A stretch of 11,224 bases of DNA. Origin: Candidatus Hydrogenedentota bacterium. GTDB lineage: Bacteria; Hydrogenedentota; Hydrogenedentia; Hydrogenedentales; SLHB01. Location of the stretch: assembly GCA_034408725.1 (NCBI GenBank), contig JAWXCN010000090.1:1-11224 (forward strand), in the 5' to 3' direction. The number at the start of each line of letters is the position of its first letter. Position 1 is the stretch's first letter. Position numbers and translations under genes: made by a program. Positions 1 to 11,224 of this stretch are shown here, piece after piece. The notes below the pieces were generated by a model. That model was not told where the DNA came from. It saw only the letters and a program-made list of their open reading frames with translations, and did no database searches.

Positions 1-263
1 GCGGAAACGCTGCGGATGGTGTACTGTCAAAGGAGTTTCCCCCGCCCGGCATCGTGAACAACTGGGCCGAGTGGCTACGGACGGAGAACGAAGACGATGC
101 GGCACGCATTCGCACCACCACACGCACTGGCCGCCCCTGCGGTGGAAAGCAGTTTCTCGTCCAACTCGAAAACCTTCTTGGGCGGGTTCTACGTCCCAAG
201 AGGCGTGGTAGGAGACCAAAACCCGCATCGGAAAACGACCTTGCAAAAAGGATTAATTCGTAG
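1..263 (+). CDS. REP-associated tyrosine transposase (RAYT / Y1 HUH family), C-terminal part; 5' end lies outside the window
   Basis: The frame is open from base 3 (GNAADGVLSKEFPPPGIVNNWAEWL...) to TAG at 261-263. The tail 'ARIRTTTRTGRPCGGKQFLVQLENLLGRVLRPKRRGRRPK' matches the typical RAYT C-terminus (IR..T.TGRP.G...F...LE..LGR.L.P.KRGRP). The HUH and Tyr catalytic motifs are not in the window. Confidence 0.8.
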   Translation, partial: GNAADGVLSKEFPPPGIVNNWAEWLRTENEDDAARIRTTTRTGRPCGGKQFLVQLENLLGRVLRPKRRGRRPKPASENDLAKRINS

Positions 264-276
264 TCTGTCCCTGAAT
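255..276 (-). repeat. Degenerate inverted copy of the REP-like motif (copy 1), overlapping the transposase stop codon
   Basis: The minus strand reads ATTCAG-GGACAGACT-ACGAAT, keeping the GGGACAG core and a 4-bp ATTC/GAAT stem. RHS homology starts immediately after it. Confidence 0.6.
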
Positions 277-279
277 ATC

Positions 280-1956
280 CATGACTATACGTATGACGAC
301 GGCGATAACGTGCTCACCAAGGTCGAGCCGTTCTTCGATGATTTTAATGACGGCAATACCACGGGTTGGACGGTCAGCGGCACGTGGTCGGCGTCGAACA
401 ACATGCTCGAAAGCACCGGCACGGGCGCGCCATTCCTTTCCAAATCCAATACCGACGCGGACAACGAAGTTTCACTACGTTACCGAATCAACAACACTTC
501 CAATAGCCAGACAAGGGCGTATATTTATCCGCGCTTTACAGACTGGAATAACCATATCTGGGTGCGGATTTTCCCTGGCTCGATTGATATTTACAAAATC
601 GTGGGCGGCACTCCAACGCAACTGGCATCAGCCAGTACTACTTCCACGCAAGATACCTGGTACAACCTGCGCATCGTCAGCGATGGGAACAATGTCGATG
701 TCTACCGCTGGGCCGACGGCGCGATGCCAACCAACGTCGTTTCCACAACAGGCGCAAACTATACGTCAACTAGTGAATTCAAGATAAACGTCCAAACCGG
801 GTTCCTCTACGACTTTGACGATATTCGAGTGCTGGCCGATGGTTTGAGCAACACCACTACATTCGCCGTCAATAACGCGAACGAACTTACCTCGATGACA
901 GACTTCAACGGGACAACCAGCTTCGGATACGATGACTGGGGCCGCATGACCTCGAAATCCCGCGGCTCCCACTCCGCTGCCTACGGCTATCGATATGGCC
1001 AAATGCTGCATTCGGTAACGAGCAATTGGCCTGGCGAGGATAACGCTACCTACCAATTCGGCAGCGATGAGAAGAGACGCGCAAGAACCGTGGGGGGGAA
1101 CACGACAATATACAATTGGGATAGCGCATGGAATATTATTTCCGAAGAAAATGCGACGGGAGGATTGACTAGCCCGTATATATTAAGACGAAACACTCTC
1201 AGTTCACACCTACTAGCGAATATATCGGGATCAAACCCAACCTCCGGTGTAGCAGCATATTCATTTCACGATACGTTATCATCTCCACGCAGTACCCGCG
1301 ATGCGAGCAAAAATTCTATCGGCGAATACGAATATGATCCATATGGAAGCATGTTTTCACAGTCTGGAACAACTCCCGATTTTGGCCTTGCAAGATATTC
1401 ATGGGACGGGACCAGTGCAATGTACTACACCGCATTTCGCAACTACATTCCAACTCTCGGGCGTTGGGCCAGTCGTGATCAACTCTTTCCATTGACAGGC
1501 CCCAATTCGTATGTGTATGTCAATGGGTCTCCGATCAATCACACGGATGTTTTAGGGCTTTTTGAGAACTATGGTTGTCTCGACTGGCAACTTGGCAATG
1601 ATACTCAACCTAACCAAAATGTAATTGCTTCTCTGCGATGTATTAGTTCCCACATTGGCATGTGTTTGACTGTTTCAGGAGGAACGAGTCCTGAAACAGG
1701 TAGTCAGCACGGCGAAAATAGCGAACATAATACAGGCAACGCTGCTGATGTCCATCCTCCTGTGGGTGCAACCGGGGATACGTTCTGGTGTGCCGCGAGC
1801 GATTGTGGATTCACGTTCGGACTTGACGAAGATGATCATTATCATGTGGATTTCGGTCCAGATAGAGGCAAGCCCACTAATCCAGACGGTACCGTAACTA
1901 ATCAAATCCAAACGGCAAATTGCGATCCAGATTGTCCAGCGTATCCTGCGAATTAA
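280..1956 (+). CDS. 5'-truncated RHS-repeat protein (orphan RHS core plus C-terminal toxin) with an M15/LAS-type Zn-peptidase tip
   Basis: YD repeats are present (YTYDDGDN, FGYDDWGRMTS, YEYDPYG). The core end reads 'MYYTAFRNYIPTLGRWASRDQL...NSYVYVNGSPINHTDVLGL' (PxxxxDPxGL-like, ending at 1560). The first ~60 aa of the listed ORF 97..1956 are an off-frame reading of the transposase tail, so no native start is evident and it may be a silent or pseudo cassette. Confidence 0.85.
   Translation, partial: HDYTYDDGDNVLTKVEPFFDDFNDGNTTGWTVSGTWSASNNMLESTGTGAPFLSKSNTDADNEVSLRYRINNTSNSQTRAYIYPRFTDWNNHIWVRIFPGSIDIYKIVGGTPTQLASASTTSTQDTWYNLRIVSDGNNVDVYRWADGAMPTNVVSTTGANYTSTSEFKINVQTGFLYDFDDIRVLADGLSNTTTFAVNNANELTSMTDFNGTTSFGYDDWGRMTSKSRGSHSAAYGYRYGQMLHSVTSNWPGEDNATYQFGSDEKRRARTVGGNTTIYNWDSAWNIISEENATGGLTSPYILRRNTLSSHLLANISGSNPTSGVAAYSFHDTLSSPRSTRDASKNSIGEYEYDPYGSMFSQSGTTPDFGLARYSWDGTSAMYYTAFRNYIPTLGRWASRDQLFPLTGPNSYVYVNGSPINHTDVLGLFENYGCLDWQLGNDTQPNQNVIASLRCISSHIGMCLTVSGGTSPETGSQHGENSEHNTGNAADVHPPVGATGDTFWCAASDCGFTFGLDEDDHYHVDFGPDRGKPTNPDGTVTNQIQTANCDPDCPAYPAN
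1561..1956 (+). other. RHS C-terminal toxin domain: peptidase M15 / Hedgehog-DD-peptidase (LAS) fold, putative peptidoglycan hydrolase
   Basis: 131 aa follow DVLGL. They contain S-x-H-x2-G-x-A-x-D (SEHNTGNAAD, H-x6-D, 1720-1749) and H-x-H (DHYHVDF, 1837-1845), the LAS zinc-ligand signature. Confidence 0.7.
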
Positions 1957-2054
1957 ACTACTGTGTGATTCCGCATAGCTCTGAAGCATTGATGTTATTA
2001 GATTTGACATTTATCGGTTGCTGTTTCTTCTAAAACGAACGGAAAAAATTCTAT

Positions 2055-3020
2055 ATGTTGAGCCTACATCTTGGATTGTCTAGAAGAAAGGTGGCACCTC
2101 TCATTTTCTCCATCTCAACGCTTTTTTCGACAACTAATCTATATGCGAATACGACCGTTGGTGTAATAGAAAAACCCATGTCACTAAATGAAAACTCGCA
2201 AGCACTGTTCAGGCCAATTGCGACTTTTCGTGATGGGAAATGGGATTCGGCGGGCCGCTATGACGGGACGATGACTGGAAAATATGCAGCTCCAAAACCA
2301 GAGGAATCAGAAGCATACTGGGAATTACTAACCTCGCAGCCATTCCATGCCGTGTATGATGCCAATATCAAACTTATGGGGCAGGAAACAGCGGACATTG
2401 AAGGCCCCAACCGCGAGAGAATACGAGCCATCCGTGGGCAAATAGGTGGTAGGTTGAGTCAAGAATATCCTATTGTATTGTGGAATAGAGAATCGGTCAC
2501 TTCAACTCCAGAGCGCAAAACGACGACTCCCTTGGACCAGCAGGTTTTGCAGTTTTGCAAAACAGAAATTCCTAAAATGGAGGATCAGGCGAGTTCCAAA
2601 CCGTCAGGGCGCGGATTCGATTCGGAATTGGCGCAAGGATTTGTCGTAACGCAAGCGATCTCATTTCCTTTTGCACCGGGGCAAACTGCCTACTGGATCA
2701 CTGTGGTCCAAGAGTATTCAGCAACCGATGTCAACGAAAAGCCTCATTGGTCGGCCACCTGCCACGTGATCGCATCTACTGTTAATCAGGGGTCCGATAG
2801 TGAGAATCTCAATATTCTTTGGAGTTCATGTACACTTGATAATGGATACAAAAATGTCGGAGTTTTTTATAAATTTATTGCTGCGCTGGATGTGACTGGC
2901 GACGGAGTGATGGAAGTCATAATGCAAGAACGGTTGTTCGAGCTTTCGCGGTACTACATGTTCGAGGTCAAGAGCGGGAAATATATTGTTGTCGCTGCGG
3001 GTTGTGAACGGGGCATATAG
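2055..3020 (+). CDS. Secreted/periplasmic hypothetical protein, putative immunity protein for the RHS tip
   Basis: 321-aa ORF directly downstream of the toxin, with similar AT-richer composition. It has a Sec-like signal peptide (RRK, hydrophobic stretch, LYA|N) and a C-terminal DVTGDGVMEV Ca-binding-like loop. The immunity role is inferred from position only. Confidence 0.6.
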   Translation: MLSLHLGLSRRKVAPLIFSISTLFSTTNLYANTTVGVIEKPMSLNENSQALFRPIATFRDGKWDSAGRYDGTMTGKYAAPKPEESEAYWELLTSQPFHAVYDANIKLMGQETADIEGPNRERIRAIRGQIGGRLSQEYPIVLWNRESVTSTPERKTTTPLDQQVLQFCKTEIPKMEDQASSKPSGRGFDSELAQGFVVTQAISFPFAPGQTAYWITVVQEYSATDVNEKPHWSATCHVIASTVNQGSDSENLNILWSSCTLDNGYKNVGVFYKFIAALDVTGDGVMEVIMQERLFELSRYYMFEVKSGKYIVVAAGCERGI

Positions 3021-3022
3021 TA

Positions 3023-3047
3023 TCAATAGGGGACAGCCACCTATTGA
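3023..3047 (+). repeat. REP-like stem-loop (copy 2)
   Basis: TCAATAGG-GGACAGCCA-CCTATTGA, a perfect 8-bp stem starting 2 nt after the TAG of 2055..3020. Confidence 0.85.
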
Positions 3048-3084
3048 ATCCCGCAAAAATTTGCACCAAATAAAGACAACGTAT

Positions 3085-3099
3085 GACAGACCCCTATTT
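3085..3099 (+). repeat. Partial REP-like motif (copy 3, loop plus right arm)
   Basis: GACAGACCCCTATTT matches GACAGCCACCTATT at 12/14 positions. RHS homology begins at 3102. Confidence 0.6.
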
Positions 3100-3101
3100 A
3101 G

Positions 3102-3587
3102 CTAACCAGCGTCACGGACGAGATCAGCAAGGTGACGAAGTATTTCTATGACTCGCTTGGGCATATGACCAAGGTCGGCGCGGGCTCTTCGGGAACGACG
3201 GACCCGACGGAGTATTTCTACAGTTCGACCACGGGATTATTGACGAAGGTGCGGTACACATCCGGATCGAATACATACGACGCCGATTACGAATATGATG
3301 GGATTGCGCGCCTGACGAAAATCACCGACTGGATCGACGATACGAATTGGAACGGTTATGTCGATGGGCTGCGTTACGGATATGACGCGGCGGGCCAACT
3401 CACGCGGATCACGGATTACGATGATTCGTATCTAACATACGAGTATGATGACGCTGGTTTGGTGACGTCGATGACCGATTACCACGGCAACGAAACTACG
3501 TACACGGCCGCGAACCGCCTGAGCACGTTGACCGCGCCGGGTTCCCGTGTGTGGGATTATGATTACAACGCTATTGGACAAGCGACA
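3102..3587 (+). pseudogene. Internal RHS/YD-repeat fragment truncated at both ends
   Basis: The frame opens right after TAG 3099-3101 with LTSVTDEISKVTKYFYDSLGHMTKV, followed by YEYDGIARLTKITD, YGYDAAGQLTRITD and YEYDDAGLVTSMTD. YD character stops at YNAIGQAT, where repeat copy 4 begins. The rest of ORF 3132..3713 is read-through. Confidence 0.85.
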
Positions 3588-3590
3588 CCG

Positions 3591-3661
3591 GAAATAGGCG
3601 ACAGCCACCTATTTCTTAACATTCCGGCCCCGCTTCCCGAACGCTTCCACCCATGCCGCGG
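3591..3661 (+). mobile_element. Orphan RAYT-element left end: REP-like stem-loop (copy 4), decayed promoter and first codons (ATG CCG CGG)
   Basis: GAAATAGG-CGACAGCCA-CCTATTTC forms an 8-bp stem (3591-3615). The 71 nt align without gaps to 11120-11190, 56/71 identical by manual count. Confidence 0.75.
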
Positions 3662-3856
3662 ACACGTCACGATGTCCCCGTCGAACCTGCCCGTCGTGAG
3701 GTCCCAGTTCTGATGCTTGCGGCTAATCTCCGTCGCGAAAAACACCCCGTCCGCATCCCGGAAAATCGCCACGTTCCGCGCGAGCCACGAATACTTGCGG
3801 AAACGCAACCCCTCGAACTCCGACACCTTCGCAATCTTGACGTACTTCGATTCCAT
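3644..3856 (-). pseudogene. Rieske [2Fe-2S] ferredoxin (NirD / dioxygenase-ferredoxin-like), inactivated
   Basis: Typical N-terminus (YVKIAKVSEF...VAIFRDADGVFFA) and box 2 (VTCPRHGWK). Box 1 CxH reads R-K-H (CGC at 3721-3719 instead of TGC). The expected C-terminus (F/YD..TG) is replaced by antisense repeat sequence. Confidence 0.8.
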
Positions 3857-3863
3857 GCCGCCA

Positions 3864-3872
3864 ATAGTAACA
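3864..3872 (-). promoter_or_regulatory. Extended -10 promoter (TGTTACTAT), probable leaderless transcript of the Rieske gene
   Basis: TGn-TACTAT ends 7 nt upstream of ATG 3856, and there is no convincing Shine-Dalgarno sequence. Confidence 0.5.
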
Positions 3873-3981
3873 AAAGTTCTACTATGGACGATTGGCCTCG
3901 CCGATTCGCACTTGCGACAAAACGGCGCCTTTGACCGTTTTTGAATAGCGCACTTCGATATTGGGCCTTGGGCCGAACGCC

Positions 3982-6900
3982 TTACGCTTCAATTAGCTCC
4001 GATGCTCGTTTATCGACTTGAGATCCCGCTCCCGGTAGTAGGAAATAAAGGATTGGCAGGAGGAACAAAGTCAACAGCGTACCCGAGACCATCCCTCCAA
4101 CGACGACCGTGGCCAAGGGCCTTTGCACCTCGGCGCCAACTCCCGTTGAGAGCATCATAGGAATGAAACCGACCACGTCGGTGATGGCGGTAGCGAGTAC
4201 GGGCCGCAATCGTTGTTTACCGCCTTCCAAGATGGCTTCTTTTAACCCAAGGCCTTGTCTGAGCATGTCCCGGAACGCTTCGATCATGACTTGTCCATTT
4301 AGCACGGCGATGCCGGCGAGCGCGATAAAGCCCACAGTCGCGCTTACGCTCAAGGGAATGCCGCGGACGTACAACGCGAACACGCCGCCAATGACGGCGC
4401 AGGGAATGCCCGTGTAGATGATCAACACATCGCGCAGGCTACGCATGCTAAGAAACAGCAAAACGAAAACGAGCAGCAGCGTAAGCGGCACGATGATAGC
4501 GAAGCGAAGCTGCGCGCGCTGCAAGTTCTCGAACTGGCCTCCCCAATCGACGATGTAGCCATCCGGTATGTCTACCTGCTCGGCGATGCGGCGTTGCGCT
4601 TCCGCCACAAATGACCCGACGTCCCGGCCGCGCACGTTTGTTTGGACCCGAATCAGCCGGCGCCCCCACTCCCGATTGATCGTTGCTGGACTGTCGACCA
4701 CTGCAATATCGGCGAGTTGCGACAATTCCAGTACAGCGCCCGATTCCATCAGGATAGGGAGCGTTGTCAGCCGCTCCATTTCCTCGCGGTACGCGTCATC
4801 AAGGCGAAGCACCAACGGGAAAACCCGTTGCCCCTCAAACACCGAACCAACTTCGATACCACCCAGTGCGTCTATGCTGCTCAAGACCTCGTCGGACGAC
4901 ACGCCGTGCCGCGAGGTGAGTGTGCGATTCACCTTGACCTGCAACGTAGGCTGACCGGTAATTTGGTCCGTCGATATGTCTTGAGCGCCTTCGATATCAA
5001 GCAACACGCGTTGCACTGCGTCCGATAGCCGCACCAGCTCCTCGAAATCGTCCCCATAGATTTTGATGCCAACGTCGGATCGTATGCCCGCCGCCATTTC
5101 GTTCATTCGCATTTCGATCGGCTGCGTATACGCGATATTGAGGCCGGGAAGGTCGCGAAGCGCCTTTTCAATTTCCACCACCAACTCCGACTGGGTGTGT
5201 ACGCGTTTCCACTGTTCGCGCGGATGGAGCGTCATGAAAATGTCGGTCAATTCGGTCCCCATCGGGTCCGTCGCGACTTCCGCAACGCCAATTCTGCTCC
5301 AGGCATATTTGATCTCGTCCGGGAATTCGTCCAGCAGCAACCGCTCGATACGTGTGTTGTACTCCGTTGAGGTATCAATGGAGACGCCCGCCAGCCGAAT
5401 TACATTCGCCACCAGGGAACCTTCGGCCAGGCGGGGTGTAAATTCGGTCCCGAGACTGGTCGCGAGCCATGCCGAAACGGAAAGCAACGCCGCTGTAACC
5501 GCAAGCACCGGCCAACGCACCCGGAGCGCGATTTTCAACAATCCCGCATAGGCCACCGTAAGCAACTGGGCAATTCCTCGACGCTCCGGGCGTGCGTTCC
5601 GCGGTAGCGCGTAGAAGGACAGGACCGGAGCAAGAAAGAGCGTAATCAACAGGGTAGCGACCAGCGCGAGCATGAAGGTCAATGCCATGGGACGAAACAT
5701 CTTGCCTTCAACACCTTCCAGAGCAAGGATTGGAACAAATACGATTATAGTTATGAATATTCCGAACGTAATGGGCCGAACAATTTCGCGTGTAGACGTA
5801 AGTATTACTTCGAGCCGTTCTTGCCGGGTGAGCAAACGCCCTAAAGCCTGCTGCTTTTCGCGCAAACGCCGCAGATTTACTTCTGTGACGACGACGCCCC
5901 CATCCGCAATCATGCCGAAATCGACGGCGCCAAGACTCAAGAGGCTTGCCGCTATGGCCATCTCGAACATGCCAAGGATCACAAATAACATCGCAAGCGG
6001 AATCGTTAATGCCACAATCAGACCCGCACGCAAATTACCTAACAGGACAAAAAGCACGACGATGACGAACAGCGCCCCAAGCAATAGATTGTTCTTTACG
6101 GTGCCTATGACTTGCGCGATCAACTCGGTGCGGTCGTACACCACGTCCAAAACGATATCGTCTGGTAACGCGTGGGCCGCCAACGCGAGCCGATCACGTA
6201 ATGCCGCGGTGACTTCGTTGCTGTTCTCACCGAGAAGCATGAAGCCCAGCCCCAGAACAACTTCCCCTTGGCCTTGAAAAGTAACTGCCCCGCGACGGAT
6301 TTCCCTATCGAGCCTTACGTCCGCCACGTCTCCAACGCGGATAGGCACGCCCTGATGCGCGCGGATAACGATGTCTTTGATTTCCTGAATCGTGGAAACA
6401 CGACCCAGGCCGTGCACAAGCAATGACTCACCGGATCGGTGCAATTGGCCGCCACCCGCATTGCGGTTGTTGCGTTCAAGCGCTTCCCGCAACTCGCTCA
6501 TCCGCAAACCGTATTTGATTAGAGAATCAGGCGACGCAACCACATGAAACTGTTTTTCATCTCCACCCCACGAGTTCACTTCGGCCACACCCGGCACTTT
6601 GAGCAACTCGGGTTTCACGACCCAATCATGAAGTTCGCGAATCTCCGCGAGTGTCCGGGTTGGGCTGTCCGACCGCAGCACATAGTGGAGGACTTCACCC
6701 AGGCCGGTGGCTATCGGGCCCAATTGCGGGCGGCTGATTCCTGCCGCTAGTTCGACGGTATTAAGGCGCTCGGAAATGAACTGGCGAGCGTCGTATACAC
6801 TCACCCCATCATGGAAAACGGCCACTACCTGTCCGAAGCCAAATTTGGATACGGAGCGTACTTCATCCAGTCCCGGCAGCCCGGAAATCGCCAACTCGAT

Positions 6901-7104
6901 AGGATGCACGGTCTGCTGTTCGATCTCCGCGGCGTTAAGAACTGGGGCCGTGATGTTGATCTGCACTTGGATGGGCGAAGTGTCCGGAAAAGCGTCAATG
7001 GGCAATTGGAACAGACGCCACGCACCCATGCCCGCCGCGAGGGCGAACAACAGGACCATCAACAAGCGATTTCGGAGCGCGAATTCAACAGATTTTTCGA
7101 GCAT
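3982..7104 (-). CDS. czcA: CusA/CzcA-family heavy-metal efflux RND permease
   Basis: 1040 aa. Motifs include LPIDAFPD, GPIATGLGE, VAEVNSWGG, TM4 'SLGAVDFGMIADGGVVVTE', EGKMFRPMA, RLRPVL and GAEVQRPLATVVVGG. The DFG-type TM4 points to the CzcA-like (divalent metal) group; the metal is not determined. Confidence 0.95.
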   Translation of the reverse strand: MLEKSVEFALRNRLLMVLLFALAAGMGAWRLFQLPIDAFPDTSPIQVQINITAPVLNAAEIEQQTVHPIELAISGLPGLDEVRSVSKFGFGQVVAVFHDGVSVYDARQFISERLNTVELAAGISRPQLGPIATGLGEVLHYVLRSDSPTRTLAEIRELHDWVVKPELLKVPGVAEVNSWGGDEKQFHVVASPDSLIKYGLRMSELREALERNNRNAGGGQLHRSGESLLVHGLGRVSTIQEIKDIVIRAHQGVPIRVGDVADVRLDREIRRGAVTFQGQGEVVLGLGFMLLGENSNEVTAALRDRLALAAHALPDDIVLDVVYDRTELIAQVIGTVKNNLLLGALFVIVVLFVLLGNLRAGLIVALTIPLAMLFVILGMFEMAIAASLLSLGAVDFGMIADGGVVVTEVNLRRLREKQQALGRLLTRQERLEVILTSTREIVRPITFGIFITIIVFVPILALEGVEGKMFRPMALTFMLALVATLLITLFLAPVLSFYALPRNARPERRGIAQLLTVAYAGLLKIALRVRWPVLAVTAALLSVSAWLATSLGTEFTPRLAEGSLVANVIRLAGVSIDTSTEYNTRIERLLLDEFPDEIKYAWSRIGVAEVATDPMGTELTDIFMTLHPREQWKRVHTQSELVVEIEKALRDLPGLNIAYTQPIEMRMNEMAAGIRSDVGIKIYGDDFEELVRLSDAVQRVLLDIEGAQDISTDQITGQPTLQVKVNRTLTSRHGVSSDEVLSSIDALGGIEVGSVFEGQRVFPLVLRLDDAYREEMERLTTLPILMESGAVLELSQLADIAVVDSPATINREWGRRLIRVQTNVRGRDVGSFVAEAQRRIAEQVDIPDGYIVDWGGQFENLQRAQLRFAIIVPLTLLLVFVLLFLSMRSLRDVLIIYTGIPCAVIGGVFALYVRGIPLSVSATVGFIALAGIAVLNGQVMIEAFRDMLRQGLGLKEAILEGGKQRLRPVLATAITDVVGFIPMMLSTGVGAEVQRPLATVVVGGMVSGTLLTLFLLPILYFLLPGAGSQVDKRASELIEA

Positions 7105-7117
7105 GCAAAGTCTACTG

Positions 7118-8713
7118 TCAGTGGTCCGTACAGCCCGCGCCCAGGCGACCCTTCAACAATTCCGATTTCACGACGTAACTACCCTGCGTAACAATGAGGT
7201 CTCCTTCCGCAAGCCCCGCCAATACGACAACTTGACCATCGGTCTCCGCACCGAGTTCGACTGGGAGCGTTTCGTACAAATCGTCTTCCAGCTTGCGAAA
7301 GATAACCGGCCGCCCGTCGACGTCCTGTATCGCCGACTCCGGCACGCTGAGTCCGGCATTGGTCATAGCTCCACGAATCGTGACGCGGGCGAACAAGCCA
7401 TCCTTTAATATGCCCTGGGAATTCGCGAGGACGGCCCGCGCTTTGACCATGCGCGTCTGTGTGTCGATCGATGCGCCGATCCATTCGACCTCGCCGTCGA
7501 ACGAGAGACCGGGATAGGCGTCAAATCGTACGTCGATTGTTGTGCCGGTGGATACCACCGCAATTTGATTTTCGGGTATGGAAAACTCCATCCACATAGT
7601 CGAGAGATCGGCTATTTGAAACAGAGCATCTCCGGAGCGAACGGATTGACCGCGCGTCGCATTTCGCTCAACAATTGTGCCCGCGAATGGCGCTCGCACC
7701 GGGAGCGTAGGCGAGTCCGTTTTTTCACTTAGCAGCGCCGCCACTTCCTCTTTTGTAAGGCCAAGTGCGAGCAAGTGCTGGCGCCCTTCCTCAATCGCGC
7801 TTTGATACACGGCAACTTCAGCTTGCGCGGCTTCGACATCCTGACGCGGAGAAATCTTGCGCACATGCAAATCCTGTTCGCGCGCGAGCGTCTGGCTTGC
7901 CCGCCGGCCTTCCGCCTGCGCTTGCTGAATTTCGCGTCGTACGGTCGCGATCTCCGTAGATTGCATTGTGGTGAGAACCTCTCCCATCTCGACCCTTTGC
8001 CCGACGTCTTTGAGAACTTCGAGCACAACACCTTCGGCAAGCGGTGTAACGTCTGCGAACTGATTGCGGTTAAACGTCACCTGGCCGAGAAATTGTGCCG
8101 CCGGGGAACGCGCGGCGGAAATTGGAGAGCCGATCGCCACGCCGGCCTTGTTCGTCGATTCACCCGACGCAAAACGGACTTTTAGCCCTTTTCCGACAGG
8201 AAGGTTGGCCACTGCTTCCGGTCTGCAATTGCCGCATTCGGATTCCGGCAGTTGATGCTCCTTGCAGAACAACCCGGATGTTTGCACCGCCCCACCTTCG
8301 GTGGTTGCAGCTTGATTTGGTGTAGCAGTTGAACCGGCCTCTTTCTTGCCCTTCAACTCGGGATGGCAAATATAGCACTCATCTTCATAGACGCCATGCT
8401 CGTTACACCACAACCGGTTCGAATCGCGCGCTTCCGCGGACACAGGTTTCTTGTTCGCAATCTCTGGGTGACAAATAACACATTCATCTTCGTAGAGGCC
8501 GTGCTCGTTGCACCACAACCGGTTAGGGTCGCGATCTTTGGGGCTTATCGCCTGACCACTTTGTTGCGCGGGCGCACTCGCTTTACGTTCAGAACCTGGT
8601 GCCCGTTCATCAGGGACCGTGTTTTCACTGGAAGCACCACAACCAGACAATGCGATCGTCAAGAAGAATGCTGCTGCTAGGACATTCGTCAACTTGAAAA
8701 TCCTGGCTATCAT
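7118..8713 (-). CDS. czcB: RND efflux periplasmic adaptor (CzcB-like membrane fusion protein), lipoprotein with N-terminal Cys/His repeats
   Basis: Lipobox LSG|C. MFP motifs include VRAPFAGTIVER, LFQIADLSTMW, IDTQTRMVKAR, VPESAIQ and GLAEGDLIVTQGS. It lies 13 nt upstream of czcA, with AAGGAG RBS at 8721-8726. Confidence 0.9.
   Translation of the reverse strand: MIARIFKLTNVLAAAFFLTIALSGCGASSENTVPDERAPGSERKASAPAQQSGQAISPKDRDPNRLWCNEHGLYEDECVICHPEIANKKPVSAEARDSNRLWCNEHGVYEDECYICHPELKGKKEAGSTATPNQAATTEGGAVQTSGLFCKEHQLPESECGNCRPEAVANLPVGKGLKVRFASGESTNKAGVAIGSPISAARSPAAQFLGQVTFNRNQFADVTPLAEGVVLEVLKDVGQRVEMGEVLTTMQSTEIATVRREIQQAQAEGRRASQTLAREQDLHVRKISPRQDVEAAQAEVAVYQSAIEEGRQHLLALGLTKEEVAALLSEKTDSPTLPVRAPFAGTIVERNATRGQSVRSGDALFQIADLSTMWMEFSIPENQIAVVSTGTTIDVRFDAYPGLSFDGEVEWIGASIDTQTRMVKARAVLANSQGILKDGLFARVTIRGAMTNAGLSVPESAIQDVDGRPVIFRKLEDDLYETLPVELGAETDGQVVVLAGLAEGDLIVTQGSYVVKSELLKGRLGAGCTDH
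8216..8524 (-). repeat. Three intragenic C-x-E-H-x5-E-C-x2-C-(H/R)-P-E repeats
   Basis: NRLWCNEHGLYEDECVICHPE (8524-8462), NRLWCNEHGVYEDECYICHPE (8419-8357) and LFCKEHQLPESECGNCRPE (8272-8216). Confidence 0.9.
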
Positions 8714-8878: not shown

Positions 8879-9292
8879 TCAGACTTGGATGACGACAAGT
8901 CCTCGTAAAGGACGGGTGGGTGATGGATCGCAGACTTTGTTTCGGAGCGCTTCGCCAGAGATGATCGGAGTTTGAATCGCTTGCTCATGAGACCAAGCGA
9001 TCATTGCTGGGGCAGACTGGACAAGAGTTCTACATTGCTGCGCTGTAAAAACCGCGAAGCCTTGAGAAAGCGCCGTAATGACACACTCGGAGCACCGAAC
9101 GGGCTCGATTTTTTTTGTGGGGACCGCGATATCCGATTGCATTTCTGACGAACAACACTCGATTGACTCGCACGGCACATCAATCGGGCCAACGGTCCCA
9201 GACTGACACACGATGCGAAAGTGCTCGCCGCCGGAAGAGGCCAGTGCGGCAATGAGTAACAGTGCAGACAACTGACTAAGCGTGATTTTCAT
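8879..9292 (-). CDS. Small exported Cys-rich hypothetical protein heading the czc operon
   Basis: Hydrophobic N-terminus (LSALLLIAALA), Cys motifs (VC, PC..IECC, CSEC) and a Pro-rich end. It resembles the small Cys-rich genes often found upstream of metal RND operons. The start is probably ATG 9292 rather than 9301, based on promoter geometry. Confidence 0.55.
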   Translation of the reverse strand: MKITLSQLSALLLIAALASSGGEHFRIVCQSGTVGPIDVPCESIECCSSEMQSDIAVPTKKIEPVRCSECVITALSQGFAVFTAQQCRTLVQSAPAMIAWSHEQAIQTPIISGEALRNKVCDPSPTRPLRGLVVIQV

Positions 9293-9299
9293 CAGGCGC

Positions 9300-9340
9300 A
9301 TACTACGCTACAAGCCAATTGCGAGTCAAAGATTTGACTC
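9300..9340 (-). promoter_or_regulatory. Sigma70-type promoter for the czc operon with an overlapping palindromic operator
   Basis: The minus strand reads TTGACT (9329-9324), 18 nt, TAGTAT (9305-9300), 7 nt, ATG 9292. A perfect inverted repeat GAGTCAAA-GA-TTTGACTC spans 9323-9340. Confidence 0.55.
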
Positions 9341-9499
9341 CGGCACGCTATGCATATCCGCCGCGATCGTGTCCGATGAACGGCGTCTGCTTCATGGCCG
9401 CGAGAATGGTCCGGGCCCCTTGTAGGACGAACGTTTGCGAAATTGGCAACAGAAAAGGTCGTGGCAGATGTTTGCGCATGGTTGAGGTAGAATCGGTGG

Positions 9500-10543
9500 G
9501 TGACGAAAGGTACGACACGCGAATTTCAGCGCATGATCAGCCGTGCTGTCGATGGACGGAGTGTGTTTGGGTGTTGTGTCAGGATGACGCGCGGGGACGG
9601 TTCGCAGGACTGGTCTGGAGCGGCCGGTGACCTGGACGTCGATACCCAGTACTTCATCGCCAGCACTACGAAACTCTACACCACAGCGATCATTCTCTCG
9701 CTTCAAAACGAAGGCGCACTGGCTTTAGACGAGCCCGTGTCGCGGTATCTGGACAGCGCGGCGGTGTCGGGGATTCACGTGTATCGCGGCGTTGACTATT
9801 CGCAGGCCATCACCATCGCCCAGCTACTGGCGCACACGTCGGGCCTTCCGGATTATTTTCAGCAGCGGGTCAACGGCAGGAGTCTGCTCGCGGCGCTTAC
9901 CAAGGGCGAGGATCAGCACTGGACCTTCGAGGATGTGGTGGAGAAAACACGCGCCATGCCGCCGAAATTCGCGCCGGGGACCAAAGGCAGGGCGCTTTAC
10001 GCGGACACCAACTATCAGATTTTGGGAAAGATCATTGAAACAATCTGTGGCAAGTCATTCAGCAGTGTATTGCACGAGCGCATTTTCGAGCCGCTGGGAT
10101 TGAACCAAACCTATCTGTTCACGGACGCAGATGACACAAGGCCACGAACGCTCTATTACAAGCACACACCGCTTCGCATTCCAGAGGCGATGGCGTCGTT
10201 TGGTCCGGACGGCGGTATCGTATCCACCGCGAATGAAACGTTGCGGTTTCTGCGCGCGTTCTTCACGGGGGAGTTATTTCCGGAGAACGCACTGGAACCG
10301 CTCAAGACGTACAACCGCATTTTCTTTCCTCTCGAGTACGGCATCGGTTTCATGCGCTTCAAATTGCCGTGGATATTTTCGCCGTTCCGGCCGTTGCCGG
10401 AGCTTTTGGGTCATTCCGGGCTATCGGGCGCGTTTGCATTCTACTGCCCGGAGAAAGACCTGTATGTCGCCGGAACGGTGAACCAGATTGCAAAGCCGCG
10501 GTTGCCATACCGTCTCATGATGAACATGGTGATGAAAGGATAG
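9500..10543 (+). CDS. Serine hydrolase, beta-lactamase / AmpC-PBP-like family
   Basis: SxxK (IASTTK), LLAHTSGLPDY, YADTNY (YxN position), GGIVST and GHSG triad; no signal peptide. The start is uncertain (GTG 9500 or ATG 9533). Confidence 0.9.
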   Translation: MTKGTTREFQRMISRAVDGRSVFGCCVRMTRGDGSQDWSGAAGDLDVDTQYFIASTTKLYTTAIILSLQNEGALALDEPVSRYLDSAAVSGIHVYRGVDYSQAITIAQLLAHTSGLPDYFQQRVNGRSLLAALTKGEDQHWTFEDVVEKTRAMPPKFAPGTKGRALYADTNYQILGKIIETICGKSFSSVLHERIFEPLGLNQTYLFTDADDTRPRTLYYKHTPLRIPEAMASFGPDGGIVSTANETLRFLRAFFTGELFPENALEPLKTYNRIFFPLEYGIGFMRFKLPWIFSPFRPLPELLGHSGLSGAFAFYCPEKDLYVAGTVNQIAKPRLPYRLMMNMVMKG

Positions 10544-10652
10544 CGGACGCGCCTGGCTACGCACTATGGAAATTCAAGTGAATATGGAATTCACGATCCA
10601 CATTCTGACTTATGCGGTCCCCGCCATCCATCCAAAGCAGTCCCGCCATACC

Positions 10653-11096
10653 CTAGCGGGCGGGCTCGTAACCCTCGACCTGTACGGACACGCGCGTTTT
10701 ACCCAGGTCTTTGCTAACCAGGATCACGGCCTTGGCCGGGCCTTTGGTATAAACCAACTCCTCAGCACCCCCGCCGCCCTGCGCCGGATCAGTTCCTTCG
10801 ATCCAGCCCTTTACCGGCATGCGATCCCGATAAAACGAAATAACTTTTGGGATATCGTCGTCCGTGACCCCGTTTACGACTAGCAACGGCCCTGAGTCAC
10901 TGACATAGTCCTGCACGAGCCCTTCATACACCGGAAAGTCTTCTGGAAACCCACCGGCCTTGGCAGCGGGCGGTGACGCTGCAGAAGGCGATGCTGTAGA
11001 CGGCGGCGCGCCGCACCCGATTGTTCCGCCGGTAATCACGACGGCAAACAGGAACAGGCTCACAAGATGCCGTGCTGGACGATGTATTCGTGCCAT
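10653..11096 (-). CDS. Hypothetical lipoprotein
   Basis: Basic N-region, hydrophobic core and TIG|C lipobox, then a Pro/Ala/Ser linker and a small domain (FPEDFPVYEG...VISFYRDRM...GW). GGAGGAG RBS at 11105-11111. Confidence 0.75.
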   Translation of the reverse strand: MARIHRPARHLVSLFLFAVVITGGTIGCGAPPSTASPSAASPPAAKAGGFPEDFPVYEGLVQDYVSDSGPLLVVNGVTDDDIPKVISFYRDRMPVKGWIEGTDPAQGGGGAEELVYTKGPAKAVILVSKDLGKTRVSVQVEGYEPAR

Positions 11097-11120: not shown

Positions 11121-11143
11121 AAATAGGGGACAGCCACCTATTT
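11121..11143 (+). repeat. REP-like stem-loop (copy 5) upstream of the second transposase
   Basis: AAATAGG-GGACAGCCA-CCTATTT, a 7-bp stem. Confidence 0.85.
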
Positions 11144-11144
11144 A

Positions 11145-11174
11145 TTGACTTTTCAGTACCGATTCCGGTACGCT
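11145..11174 (+). promoter_or_regulatory. Promoter of the second transposase (leaderless geometry) with an internal palindrome
   Basis: TTGACT (11145-11150), 18 nt, TACGCT (11169-11174), 7 nt, ATG 11182. A GTACCG-ATTC-CGGTAC palindrome spans 11156-11171. Confidence 0.55.
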
Positions 11175-11181
11175 ACCTCCC

Positions 11182-11224
11182 ATGCCACGGCACGCGCGCA
11201 TCGTCATACCCGGCCTATCCCACC
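11182..11224 (+). CDS. REP-associated tyrosine transposase (RAYT), N-terminus; runs off the window
   Basis: Translates as MPRHARIVIPGLSH(H..), matching the characteristic RAYT start MPRxARxVxPGxPHHVTQRGN. It is not in the ORF track, and only 14 codons are visible. Confidence 0.75.
   Translation, partial: MPRHARIVIPGLSH

Follow-up and report, generated by a model that had tools for sequence, protein, structure and literature searches.

RAYT/IS200-like hairpin repeats at the edges of RHS toxin cassettes in Hydrogenedentales

REP (repetitive extragenic palindromic) sequences are join points of chromosomal rearrangements, and the Rhs elements of E. coli are rich in insertion sequences (ISs; H-rpt). 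The element IS608 has distinct left and right ends on the same strand and moves by single-strand 'peel and paste'. Arrays of orphan Rhs modules reportedly arise by C-terminal displacement, a model said to go back to Jackson in 2009 and Koskiniemi in 2014. RAYTs (REP-associated tyrosine transposases) are typically present in one copy per genome, according to a passage in Bertels et al. 2017 (PMC5581495). Our literature searches found no published link between REP/RAYT and RHS cassettes or polymorphic toxins; 10.1101/2024.07.17.603846 covers RAYT and rhs, each separately in the portions that name them. Here, we study an 11,224-nt stretch of DNA (the window), i.e., the whole contig C90 (JAWXCN010000090.1) of a Candidatus Hydrogenedentota metagenome-assembled genome (MAG; GCA_034408725.1; 280 contigs, 5.17 Mb, 57% G+C; called G000 below). 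The runs containing the stretch carry the label microbial mat metagenome. The window holds pieces of RHS genes, among them an orphan C-terminal module with a toxin tip and a presumed immunity gene (the cassette), together with hairpin repeats and transposase remnants. We relate these repeats to their transposases and to the RHS loci of 133 genomes of the order.

The preliminary description of the window had claimed that every RHS breakpoint coincides with a repeat, and this is indeed the case. That is, the internal RHS edges at 280, 3102 and 3587 each lie 0-6 nt from a hairpin repeat, and the stop codon of the presumed immunity gene (3020) lies 4 nt from one. The edges are real; they were mapped by aligning the pieces to a full-length relative (P0001, 2214 aa). 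Here, 280-1560 of the orphan corresponds to residues 1644-2063 (46% identity, alignment through the core end DVLGL), and the fragment 3102-3587 to residues 1405-1562 (70% identity; Pfam RHS_repeat 2e-19).

Two repeat types are found at these places. REP_A has the form AAATAGG-GGACAGCCA-CCTATTT and is located at 3025, 3593 and 11122, plus a half copy at 3085-3100, while REP_B (AATTC-AGGGACAGACTAC-GAATT) occupies 250-280 on the opposite strand. The 21-nt REP_A palindrome AATAGGGGACAGCCACCTATT occurs without mismatch at 3025-3045 and 11122-11142 and with one mismatch at 3593-3613; no match was obtained in 200 shuffles of the sequence. The bare hexamer GGACAG is not significantly enriched in the window (7 sites vs. 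4.4 expected; 33/200 shuffles reach 7). REP_A folds into a 7-8 bp stem with a 9-nt loop (-7.2 kcal/mol, z -4.8 for the copy at 3025-3045), and the REP_B copy folds weakly (-2.2 kcal/mol, z -1.05). The core of the latter is the reverse complement of CAGGGACAGACTACGAATT; an exact 19-mer is common to this copy and C171:9880. The site 3085-3100 (GACAGACCCCTATTTA, family D3) comprises the right half of the motif only (13-14/16 bases; 81-88% identity to the right halves of three full copies) and does not fold; a related sequence, ATGACAGACCC, lies between hairpin and RHS orphan in another genome (G104). The preliminary description had treated all copies as one motif with a GGACAG core. This holds for its copies 2 and 4 (and for 11122-11142), which are one 21-nt palindrome, but copy 1 is another variant and copy 3 the half motif.

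The whole genome G000 yields 14 REP_A copies when up to 3 mismatches are allowed and 17 when 4 are, together with 6 good REP_B copies. The 13-mer core GGGGACAGCCACC has 75 occurrences at up to one mismatch, about 55 of which belong to a 46-nt REPIN-like palindrome. Given this common 13-mer core, the repeats probably belong to a genuine REP superfamily. The 46-nt palindrome itself, GGGGACAGCCACCGGCAWCCAAAACGCGWTGCCGGTGACAGTCCCC, shares its 13-mer head with REP_A and is spread in its ~55 copies over many contigs (e.g., C153:20967, C163:2447 and C156:16023).

We compared the position of the repeats with that of RHS-like DNA within G000. Five of the 20 REP_A/REP_B copies are within 100 nt of RHS-like DNA, compared to a mean of 0.076 and a maximum of 3 in 20,000 permutations.

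Repeats and RHS loci were also compared in the relatives. The RHS family is present in 64/133 genomes, where orphans and core fragments commonly trail a main gene of 2100-2450 codons. REP_A is found in 28/133 genomes (92 copies) and REP_B in 50/133 (221 copies), scattered over families; reversed-pattern controls gave 0 hits for REP_A and 1 for REP_B. Of a third type, REP_C (core TRGGGACAGTAACCA), G006 contains 47 copies and seven other genomes contain 13-40 each; the control for this pattern gave more noise (0-2 hits per genome), such that REP_C counts of 1-2 mean nothing. We selected 19 RHS array loci (244 kb) from RHS matches regardless of repeats. Here, 7/12 repeat hits are at most 100 nt upstream of one of the 44 RHS-piece 5' edges, where 0.24 would be expected if they were evenly spread. 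Hairpins lie 0-22 nt from orphan 5' edges in six genomes (G000, G006, G009, G114, G037, G112) and 18-60 nt upstream in two more (G021, G104), and repeat and RHS match are within 3 kb on one contig in at least 11 of the 39 other genomes having both (among the matches listed). The association of the repeats with RHS edges is established far beyond chance and recurs across genera.

It is far from universal. By the strict motif test, 37/44 RHS-piece 5' edges are without repeat, and looser, diverged look-alikes are found upstream of a few more edges. In the arrays of G069, G092 and G131 no RHS 5' edge has a strict-motif repeat (the G131 locus has one weak REP_B-like match elsewhere). An initial tally had 17/20 array loci as repeat-free, and REP_C was later found at orphan edges in G006 and G114; 'repeat-free' therefore refers to these tested motifs alone and may overlook variants that have diverged further. 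Some lineages show other conserved junction sequences at RHS edges. A conserved element of ~90 nt upstream of some orphans of genus g6 was considered and rejected, as it is no dispersed repeat (3 copies in 5 genomes).

The repeats, which are hairpins of the REP type, form the two ends of RAYT/IS200-like Y1 (HUH) elements or are left of them as solo remnants. The link to transposase genes had been proposed in the preliminary description and is borne out: 3592-3661 is 80% identical to 11121-11190, and a transposase gene on contig C157 lies between two inverted REP_A copies. Over its full length, the unit at 3592-3666 shows 80% identity to 11121-11194 and 83% to C195:3108-3181, and its frame after MPR is no longer that of a transposase. 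This unit of hairpin, leader and gene start, repeated at 3592 and 11121, also occurs in C195, C171 and C157. REP_B is the end hairpin of a second transposase subfamily (start in C106, ends in C90 and C98); one REP_B copy sits 39 nt upstream of the C106 transposase start.

The window carries only the last 86 and the first 14 transposase codons. The piece at 3..263 alone has no Pfam match; by tblastn it is 62% identical to C98, 44-46% to C32 and C74 and 37% to C157, the copy of which has Y1_Tnp. At the nucleotide level (blastn), 62-276 aligns to C98 at 73%, and a Logan contig adds 261 nt upstream to the gene. At the other end, the last 26 nt of the window equal the first 26 nt of C173, where the frame stops after ~60 codons, before the HUH motif. 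Transposase pieces are found on 12 contigs of G000, many at contig ends and others as N- or C-terminal fragments. The most complete copy, in C157, is split over three frames, and no uninterrupted transposase was found in G000 with the intact protein of G037 as query. The copies adjoining RHS pieces are truncated.

The G037 gene (244 aa) lies between inverted REP_A copies. Its protein matches Pfam Y1_Tnp with 42 bits (cut-off 23), shows the HUH motif and catalytic tyrosine (HVH and RYVERNP) when read in the sequence, and carries a C-terminal extension of ~100 aa. Its best NCBIfam match is REP_Tyr_transpos (NF047646) with 63.2 bits, below the cut-off of 80 (fragments: 34-45 bits). The transposase resembles a RAYT locus in its features but an insertion sequence in copy number, decay and patchy distribution. 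In yet another genome (L014; G015:C685:4600-4690), a transposase 3' end is closely followed by three perfect REP_A copies, which form a tandem array with a period of 35 nt.

The junctions are spanned by independent assemblies, such that the preliminary description's concern about an assembly chimera is not borne out. One Logan contig from run X2 crosses 243-3676, and Logan pieces from X1, X3 and X4 cross the same junctions. In addition, sibling metagenome contigs cover 34-3736 (L097) and 2462-5498 (L099) at 99.97-100% identity. The assembly graph has a branch node at 243-272 with one in-edge and two out-edges, i.e., at the end of a transposase copy with two contexts. It also branches at 3647-3676 and 3865-3894, which are both ends of the Rieske gene copy described below. 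A dispersed repeat of ~120 nt without relation to the GGACAG family is probably a main cause of the fragmented assembly; besides C171:6655-6774, it occupies over 150 further places, frequently in tandem and at the ends of contigs. All features of the window are collected in Table 1.

Table 1. Features of the 11,224-nt window in order of position.
Feature	Position	Strand	Remarks
RAYT/IS200-like Y1 transposase, last 86 codons	3..263	+	C-terminal extension outside Pfam Y1_Tnp; contig starts inside the gene
REP_B, right-end hairpin of the 3..263 transposase unit	250..280	-	overlaps stop codon 261-263; abuts the RHS orphan
Orphan RHS C-terminal module, no start of its own	280..1956	+	YD repeat, LamG-like (3-keto-disaccharide hydrolase-like) insert, core ending DVLGL, tip
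Toxin tip, 133 aa	1555..1953	+	end of the RHS orphan
Putative immunity protein, 321 aa	2055..3020	+	N-terminal signal-like segment; specific to the cassette
REP_A hairpin	3025..3045	+	4 nt past the immunity stop
Right half of REP-like motif	3085..3100	+	separated from the RHS fragment by 1 nt
Internal RHS core fragment, YD repeats, 486 nt	3102..3587	+	no start, no toxin tip
REP_A hairpin, leader and first transposase codons (left-end remnant)	3592..3666	+	rest of the gene gone
5' part of Rieske-protein gene with 38 nt upstream, 248 nt	3647..3894	-	cut after CPRHGW; Pfam Rieske
Two large open reading frames	3982-8713	-	metal-efflux genes, read by eye
Small open reading frame and beta-lactamase-fold gene			beyond the efflux genes; small frame without family
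147-codon open reading frame	10653..11096	-	no family
REP_A hairpin (11122-11142), leader and transposase start (ATG 11182)	11121..11224	+	contig ends inside

The orphan matches Pfam RHS_repeat and 3keto-disac_hyd as well as NCBIfam Rhs_assc_core (51 bits). It shows what characterizes an RHS orphan module, i.e., a partial core ending in a motif of the PxxxxDPxGL type, a variable tip (those of its relatives differ), a downstream open reading frame (ORF) and no start. The tip (1555-1953) has no Pfam or PDB sequence match. Read by eye, it contains the motifs SxHxxGxAxD and HxH, which are known from zinc D-Ala-D-Ala peptidases, and its second-ranked Atlas cluster (score 0.94) has Peptidase_M15_3 in 32% of its members. 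A cell-wall-directed toxin with a periplasmic immunity protein may thus be treated as a lead, not as a finding. The ORF at 2055-3020 has no family in Pfam or NCBIfam and is a putative immunity protein by its position. Elsewhere, it was found only on three sibling metagenome contigs of the same population (100% identity) and on none of the genome contigs searched. Likewise, no cassette was seen twice in different contexts among the genome and metagenome contigs.

The RHS fragment at 3102-3587 is a neutral relic. We regard such fragments as neutral relics because the sibling contig L098 carries a 14-nt deletion variant inside this one, and because the corresponding fragment in C171 is frameshifted. 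A single insertion that split one RHS gene was considered as the origin of the two pieces and rejected, since P0001 residue 1562 is the last one covered by the fragment and 1644 the first covered by the orphan, which nevertheless precedes the fragment on the contig. A partner contig with the missing RHS 5' part was also sought; in the candidates C88, C226 and C135, the contig breaks off within YD repeats that belong to other RHS families.

Other RHS loci of G000 allow for a comparison with the window. Contig C171 is laid out in parallel to the window. Its orphan (residues 1560-2084) is followed by a small ORF without relation to that of the window, REP_A with a 12-nt extension, REP_B, a fragment (residues 1016-1255), REP_A and an N-terminal transposase fragment. 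The RHS fragment ends 2 nt before the left-end hairpin, behind which the transposase fragment is found. The window's hairpin at 3025 and its next 12 nt are common with C171:9644-9676 (33 nt at 91%), where they stand behind another RHS-immunity cassette. Close to the C171 orphan, at ~200 nt from its 5' edge, lies the 3' remnant of a group II intron, i.e., a truncated domain V/VI (C171:6774-6846, minus strand; Rfam RF00029, 60.6 bits). In C97, an RHS-like gene is followed by a 390-codon gene, REP_B 16 nt past its stop and a duplicated RHS-like fragment. By contrast, C135 carries, next to an RHS gene and two small ORFs, an internal piece of RHS without any repeat, i.e., fragments also arise without repeats.

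A filled and an empty site can be compared in G037 and its sister G078. Two transporter genes are 145 nt apart in G078 and ~4.1 kb apart in G037, where an island of ~3.8 kb lies between them. The island starts with an end hairpin, the intact transposase, the other end hairpin and a 144-codon ORF. Next come a hairpin variant that immediately precedes an RHS orphan, an ORF with ankyrin repeats, and the same hairpin variant once more with a 60-nt orphan stub (82% identical to the start of the neighbouring orphan). The stub is cut by an end hairpin plus roughly the last 90 nt of a second transposase copy, with which the island ends. The pair shows that a block bracketed by transposases, with an RHS cassette inside, can be gained or missing as a whole; it also shows a transposase end that went into RHS orphan DNA. 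Direct copies of a further hairpin, which is dispersed in 33 copies in G037, stand on either side of the island. The order of transposase, cargo and transposase recurs in the window.

A further block is found in G104 (L094; contig C20, reverse strand). Here, a direct repeat of more than 200 nt that starts with REP_C is located at 340-600 and 4762-4990 and encloses a block with a glycosyltransferase-like gene and an array of RHS orphans; of the two repeat copies, the first is itself duplicated in tandem.

The left-end remnant at 3592 runs into a piece of a Rieske-protein gene. The piece (3647-3894) is 96.4% identical to C106:4596-4843, where the gene is complete and lies ~700 nt from a REP_B hairpin and transposase start. 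Homology to the transposase leader extends to 3666, Rieske homology begins at 3647, and the parents share CCACCCATGCCGCGGACACG (14-20 nt). The junction is present in contigs of X1, X2 and X3 as well as in L097 and L099. Its sequence marks it as a microhomology join rather than the product of cutting at the hairpin.

The remainder of the window is taken up by the metal-efflux operon and its neighbours. Sister genomes have a recombinase gene in this neighbourhood; in G000, that gene is on C206 in another context, such that an empty site is not definable for the window. About 100-180 nt downstream of the xerD-like gene on C206, there is a palindromic dispersed repeat of ~76 nt that is found on 30 or more other contigs in both orientations. 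Within a 531-codon ORF upstream of the large efflux gene, 8342-8433 and 8447-8538 (minus strand) form a tandem 92-nt duplication (76% identity), which encodes two Cys-rich segments (NRLWCNEHG.YEDEC.ICHPE) and may be a metal-binding module.

With about even chances, REP/RAYT elements colonise RHS arrays and supply their breakpoints. Multi-copy, mostly decayed Y1 elements would have inserted into and between the modules of RHS orphan arrays. RHS pieces would then end at hairpins because element ends were inserted in RHS DNA and were followed by deletions or joins at or beside the elements. The later joins could have been made by recombination between like-oriented hairpins, plus at least one microhomology join. 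The outcome would be the order seen in the window, i.e., a transposase 3' end, an RHS toxin-immunity orphan, a hairpin, an RHS core relic and a transposase 5' remnant beside an unrelated metal-efflux operon. RHS modules may serve as a habitat since they are tolerant, non-essential and often foreign DNA, and blocks of transposase, cargo and transposase might occasionally carry RHS cassettes to new sites. This reading draws on the hairpins as element ends, the decay and scatter of the elements, the insertions into RHS DNA that are directly visible in G037 and C171, the join at 3647, the relic state of the RHS fragments, the enrichment figures and the G037 island. What the repeats are, how they relate to the transposase genes, where the junctions lie, the enrichment at RHS 5' edges across genera and one pair of filled and empty sites are thereby shown; the elements as cause of the breaks, and the reaction behind them, are inferred.

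The preliminary description had gone further and proposed a transposase that shuffles RHS pieces into an integron-like cassette array. Its first part stands in so far as repeats are found at edges across genera and the G037 island exists; it does not account for the fragment in C135, the intron edge in C171, the microhomology at 3647 and the truncated transposases. The integron-like array finds no support, as neither an integrase nor an attI/attC-like site nor a uniform boundary was found and most edges are without repeat. That is, a dedicated integron-like capture mechanism is neither needed nor supported.

Several observations weigh against colonisation. The hairpins fit tightly to the RHS 5' edge and have a common orientation, which fits a cassette-linked site better: 6/7 of the edge-upstream hairpins are on the RHS coding strand, and in G006, G021 and G009 a distance of 3-22 nt separates the hairpin from the RHS 5' edge, compared to 24-99 nt between it and the upstream stop (in the G006 array, REP_C is 4-22 nt upstream of all three orphans, and the preceding ORF stops 43-99 nt away). 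The two hairpins of one unit are mutually inverted, as in REP/RAYT loci and not as in IS608, and, unlike in IS200/IS605, no shared 4-5 nt target left of the hairpins was seen by eye in the list of G000 hairpins. Furthermore, kin genomes and tandem duplicates are not independent, such that the enrichment figures overstate the number of events. Finally, no alternative joins or circles at the repeats were found in the contigs of four runs, in which rare forms are invisible.

The tight fit, the strand bias and the hairpins' closeness to the RHS edge rather than to the preceding stop codon are what active mobilisation would produce, which we consider possible but doubtful. Here, a Y1 transposase acting in trans would cut at like-oriented hairpins and free single-strand circles of hairpin, RHS core, toxin and immunity gene. 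The circles would enter the RHS core through homologous (Campbell-type) recombination or insert at another hairpin, and a displaced orphan would keep its 5' hairpin; the outcome would resemble an integron array, the mechanism would not. This is also consistent with the distances of 0-22 nt (six genomes) and 18-60 nt (G021, G104) given above, with free-standing orphans without a nearby main RHS gene in the window, G037 and G104, and with REP_A plus the same 12 nt behind two unrelated immunity genes. The G037 island between direct hairpin copies, with its site empty in G078, and the G104 block between direct repeats starting with a hairpin are likewise in line with it. However, most RHS-piece 5' edges have no repeat, among them all those of the G069, G092 and G131 arrays, and the transposase copies adjoining RHS pieces are truncated. 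The join at 3647 reads as microhomology, and one edge has group II intron debris. In addition, the contigs of the four runs hold no circle or alternative joint, and no cassette occurs twice in different contexts.

Both colonisation and mobilisation place the hairpins at RHS edges by DNA events. Quite improbable in our view is that they are instead kept for a role at the RNA level, i.e., as terminator, insulator or 3'-end stabiliser, and are close to RHS edges merely due to short spacers. Stabilisation of mRNA by REP is established in E. coli, and the strand bias would fit a function at the transcript level. Respective positions are found in the window (REP_A 4 nt past the immunity stop), in C97 (16 nt past a gene stop), in G098, where REP_A overlaps the stop of a presumed immunity ORF (by eye), and in G092, where it overlaps that of a truncated RHS core. 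Furthermore, the REP_A stem, as read from the sequence, has stop codons in two frames. On the other hand, the hairpins of G006, G021 and G009 keep their distance from the stop and not from the RHS edge, and hairpins are also found behind non-coding RHS relics (3593; C171:10658). Events at the DNA level are also indicated by the half copies and transposase remnants that occupy these sites. A chimeric MAG contig or coincidental short matches are hardly credible and already largely refuted: contig ends in repeats, the three graph branches and the missing enrichment of the bare hexamer would speak for them, but a single contig from another run and the sibling contigs cross the junctions, the 21-mer is absent from all shuffles, the number of RHS-near repeats exceeds the permutation maximum and the reversed patterns give next to no hits.

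How new toxin tips are delivered to RHS and other polymorphic-toxin loci is a question that homologous recombination does not answer, since it explains installation only. The link of hairpins to orphan 5' edges in several genera is a testable candidate for delivery or for array remodelling, and it also bears on the function of RAYT-like genes. It is unlikely, although conceivable, that RAYT-type transposases and their hairpins are a vehicle for polymorphic-toxin exchange. Hairpin-bounded units of RHS core, toxin and immunity gene would then be excised as single-strand circles and installed by homologous recombination in resident RHS genes or at dispersed hairpins, which would build arrays of 5'-hairpin orphans as well as free-standing cassettes. 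If there is only colonisation of tolerant DNA, RHS arrays are still the preferred habitat of these elements in this order and the hairpins are still break sites of the arrays.

Compared to known systems, integron arrays share with the loci studied here a row of promoter-less cassettes in one orientation and a folded single-strand site at one boundary. They differ by IntI, attI and attC-like sites of 57-141 nt, none of which is seen here; the repeats have 21-31 nt, are located 5' of the cassette and are absent from most cassettes of the relatives. In addition, Pfam finds no tyrosine recombinase among the ORFs of 280-3856 and 8879-11096, and those of 3982-8713 were read by eye as efflux genes. 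REP sequences at rearrangement points and the H-rpt elements are similar in that short palindromes or ISs stand at the ends of duplications and deletions and mobile elements lie within Rhs loci, but neither is known to show RAYT-type hairpins at orphan 5' edges across genera.

Rhs orphan arrays formed by C-terminal displacement likewise contain core relics next to orphans made up of a partial core, a toxin tip and an immunity gene. In contrast, the orphan of the window stands alone between transposase copies; the contig lacks a main gene, and every edge has a repeat. With IS200/IS605 elements (IS608, ISDra2), the transposase units share Pfam Y1_Tnp, hairpins, several copies, decay into fragments and insertion inside other genes. 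The subterminal hairpins that such elements have in place of inverted terminal repeats are matched in part, as the two hairpins of a unit are inverted copies of one another; the units further differ by the C-terminal extension and the lack of a conserved 4-5 nt target (by eye). From REP/RAYT systems and REPINs, they differ by a gene that is multi-copy, divergent, often truncated and patchy (63 bits vs. the 80-bit cut-off) and by low genome copy numbers of REP_A (~15) and REP_B (~6). They resemble these systems in the Y1 HUH gene between inverted short palindromes that are also dispersed, in the 13-mer core shared with the ~55-copy REPIN-like palindrome, and in REP_Tyr_transpos as best NCBIfam match.

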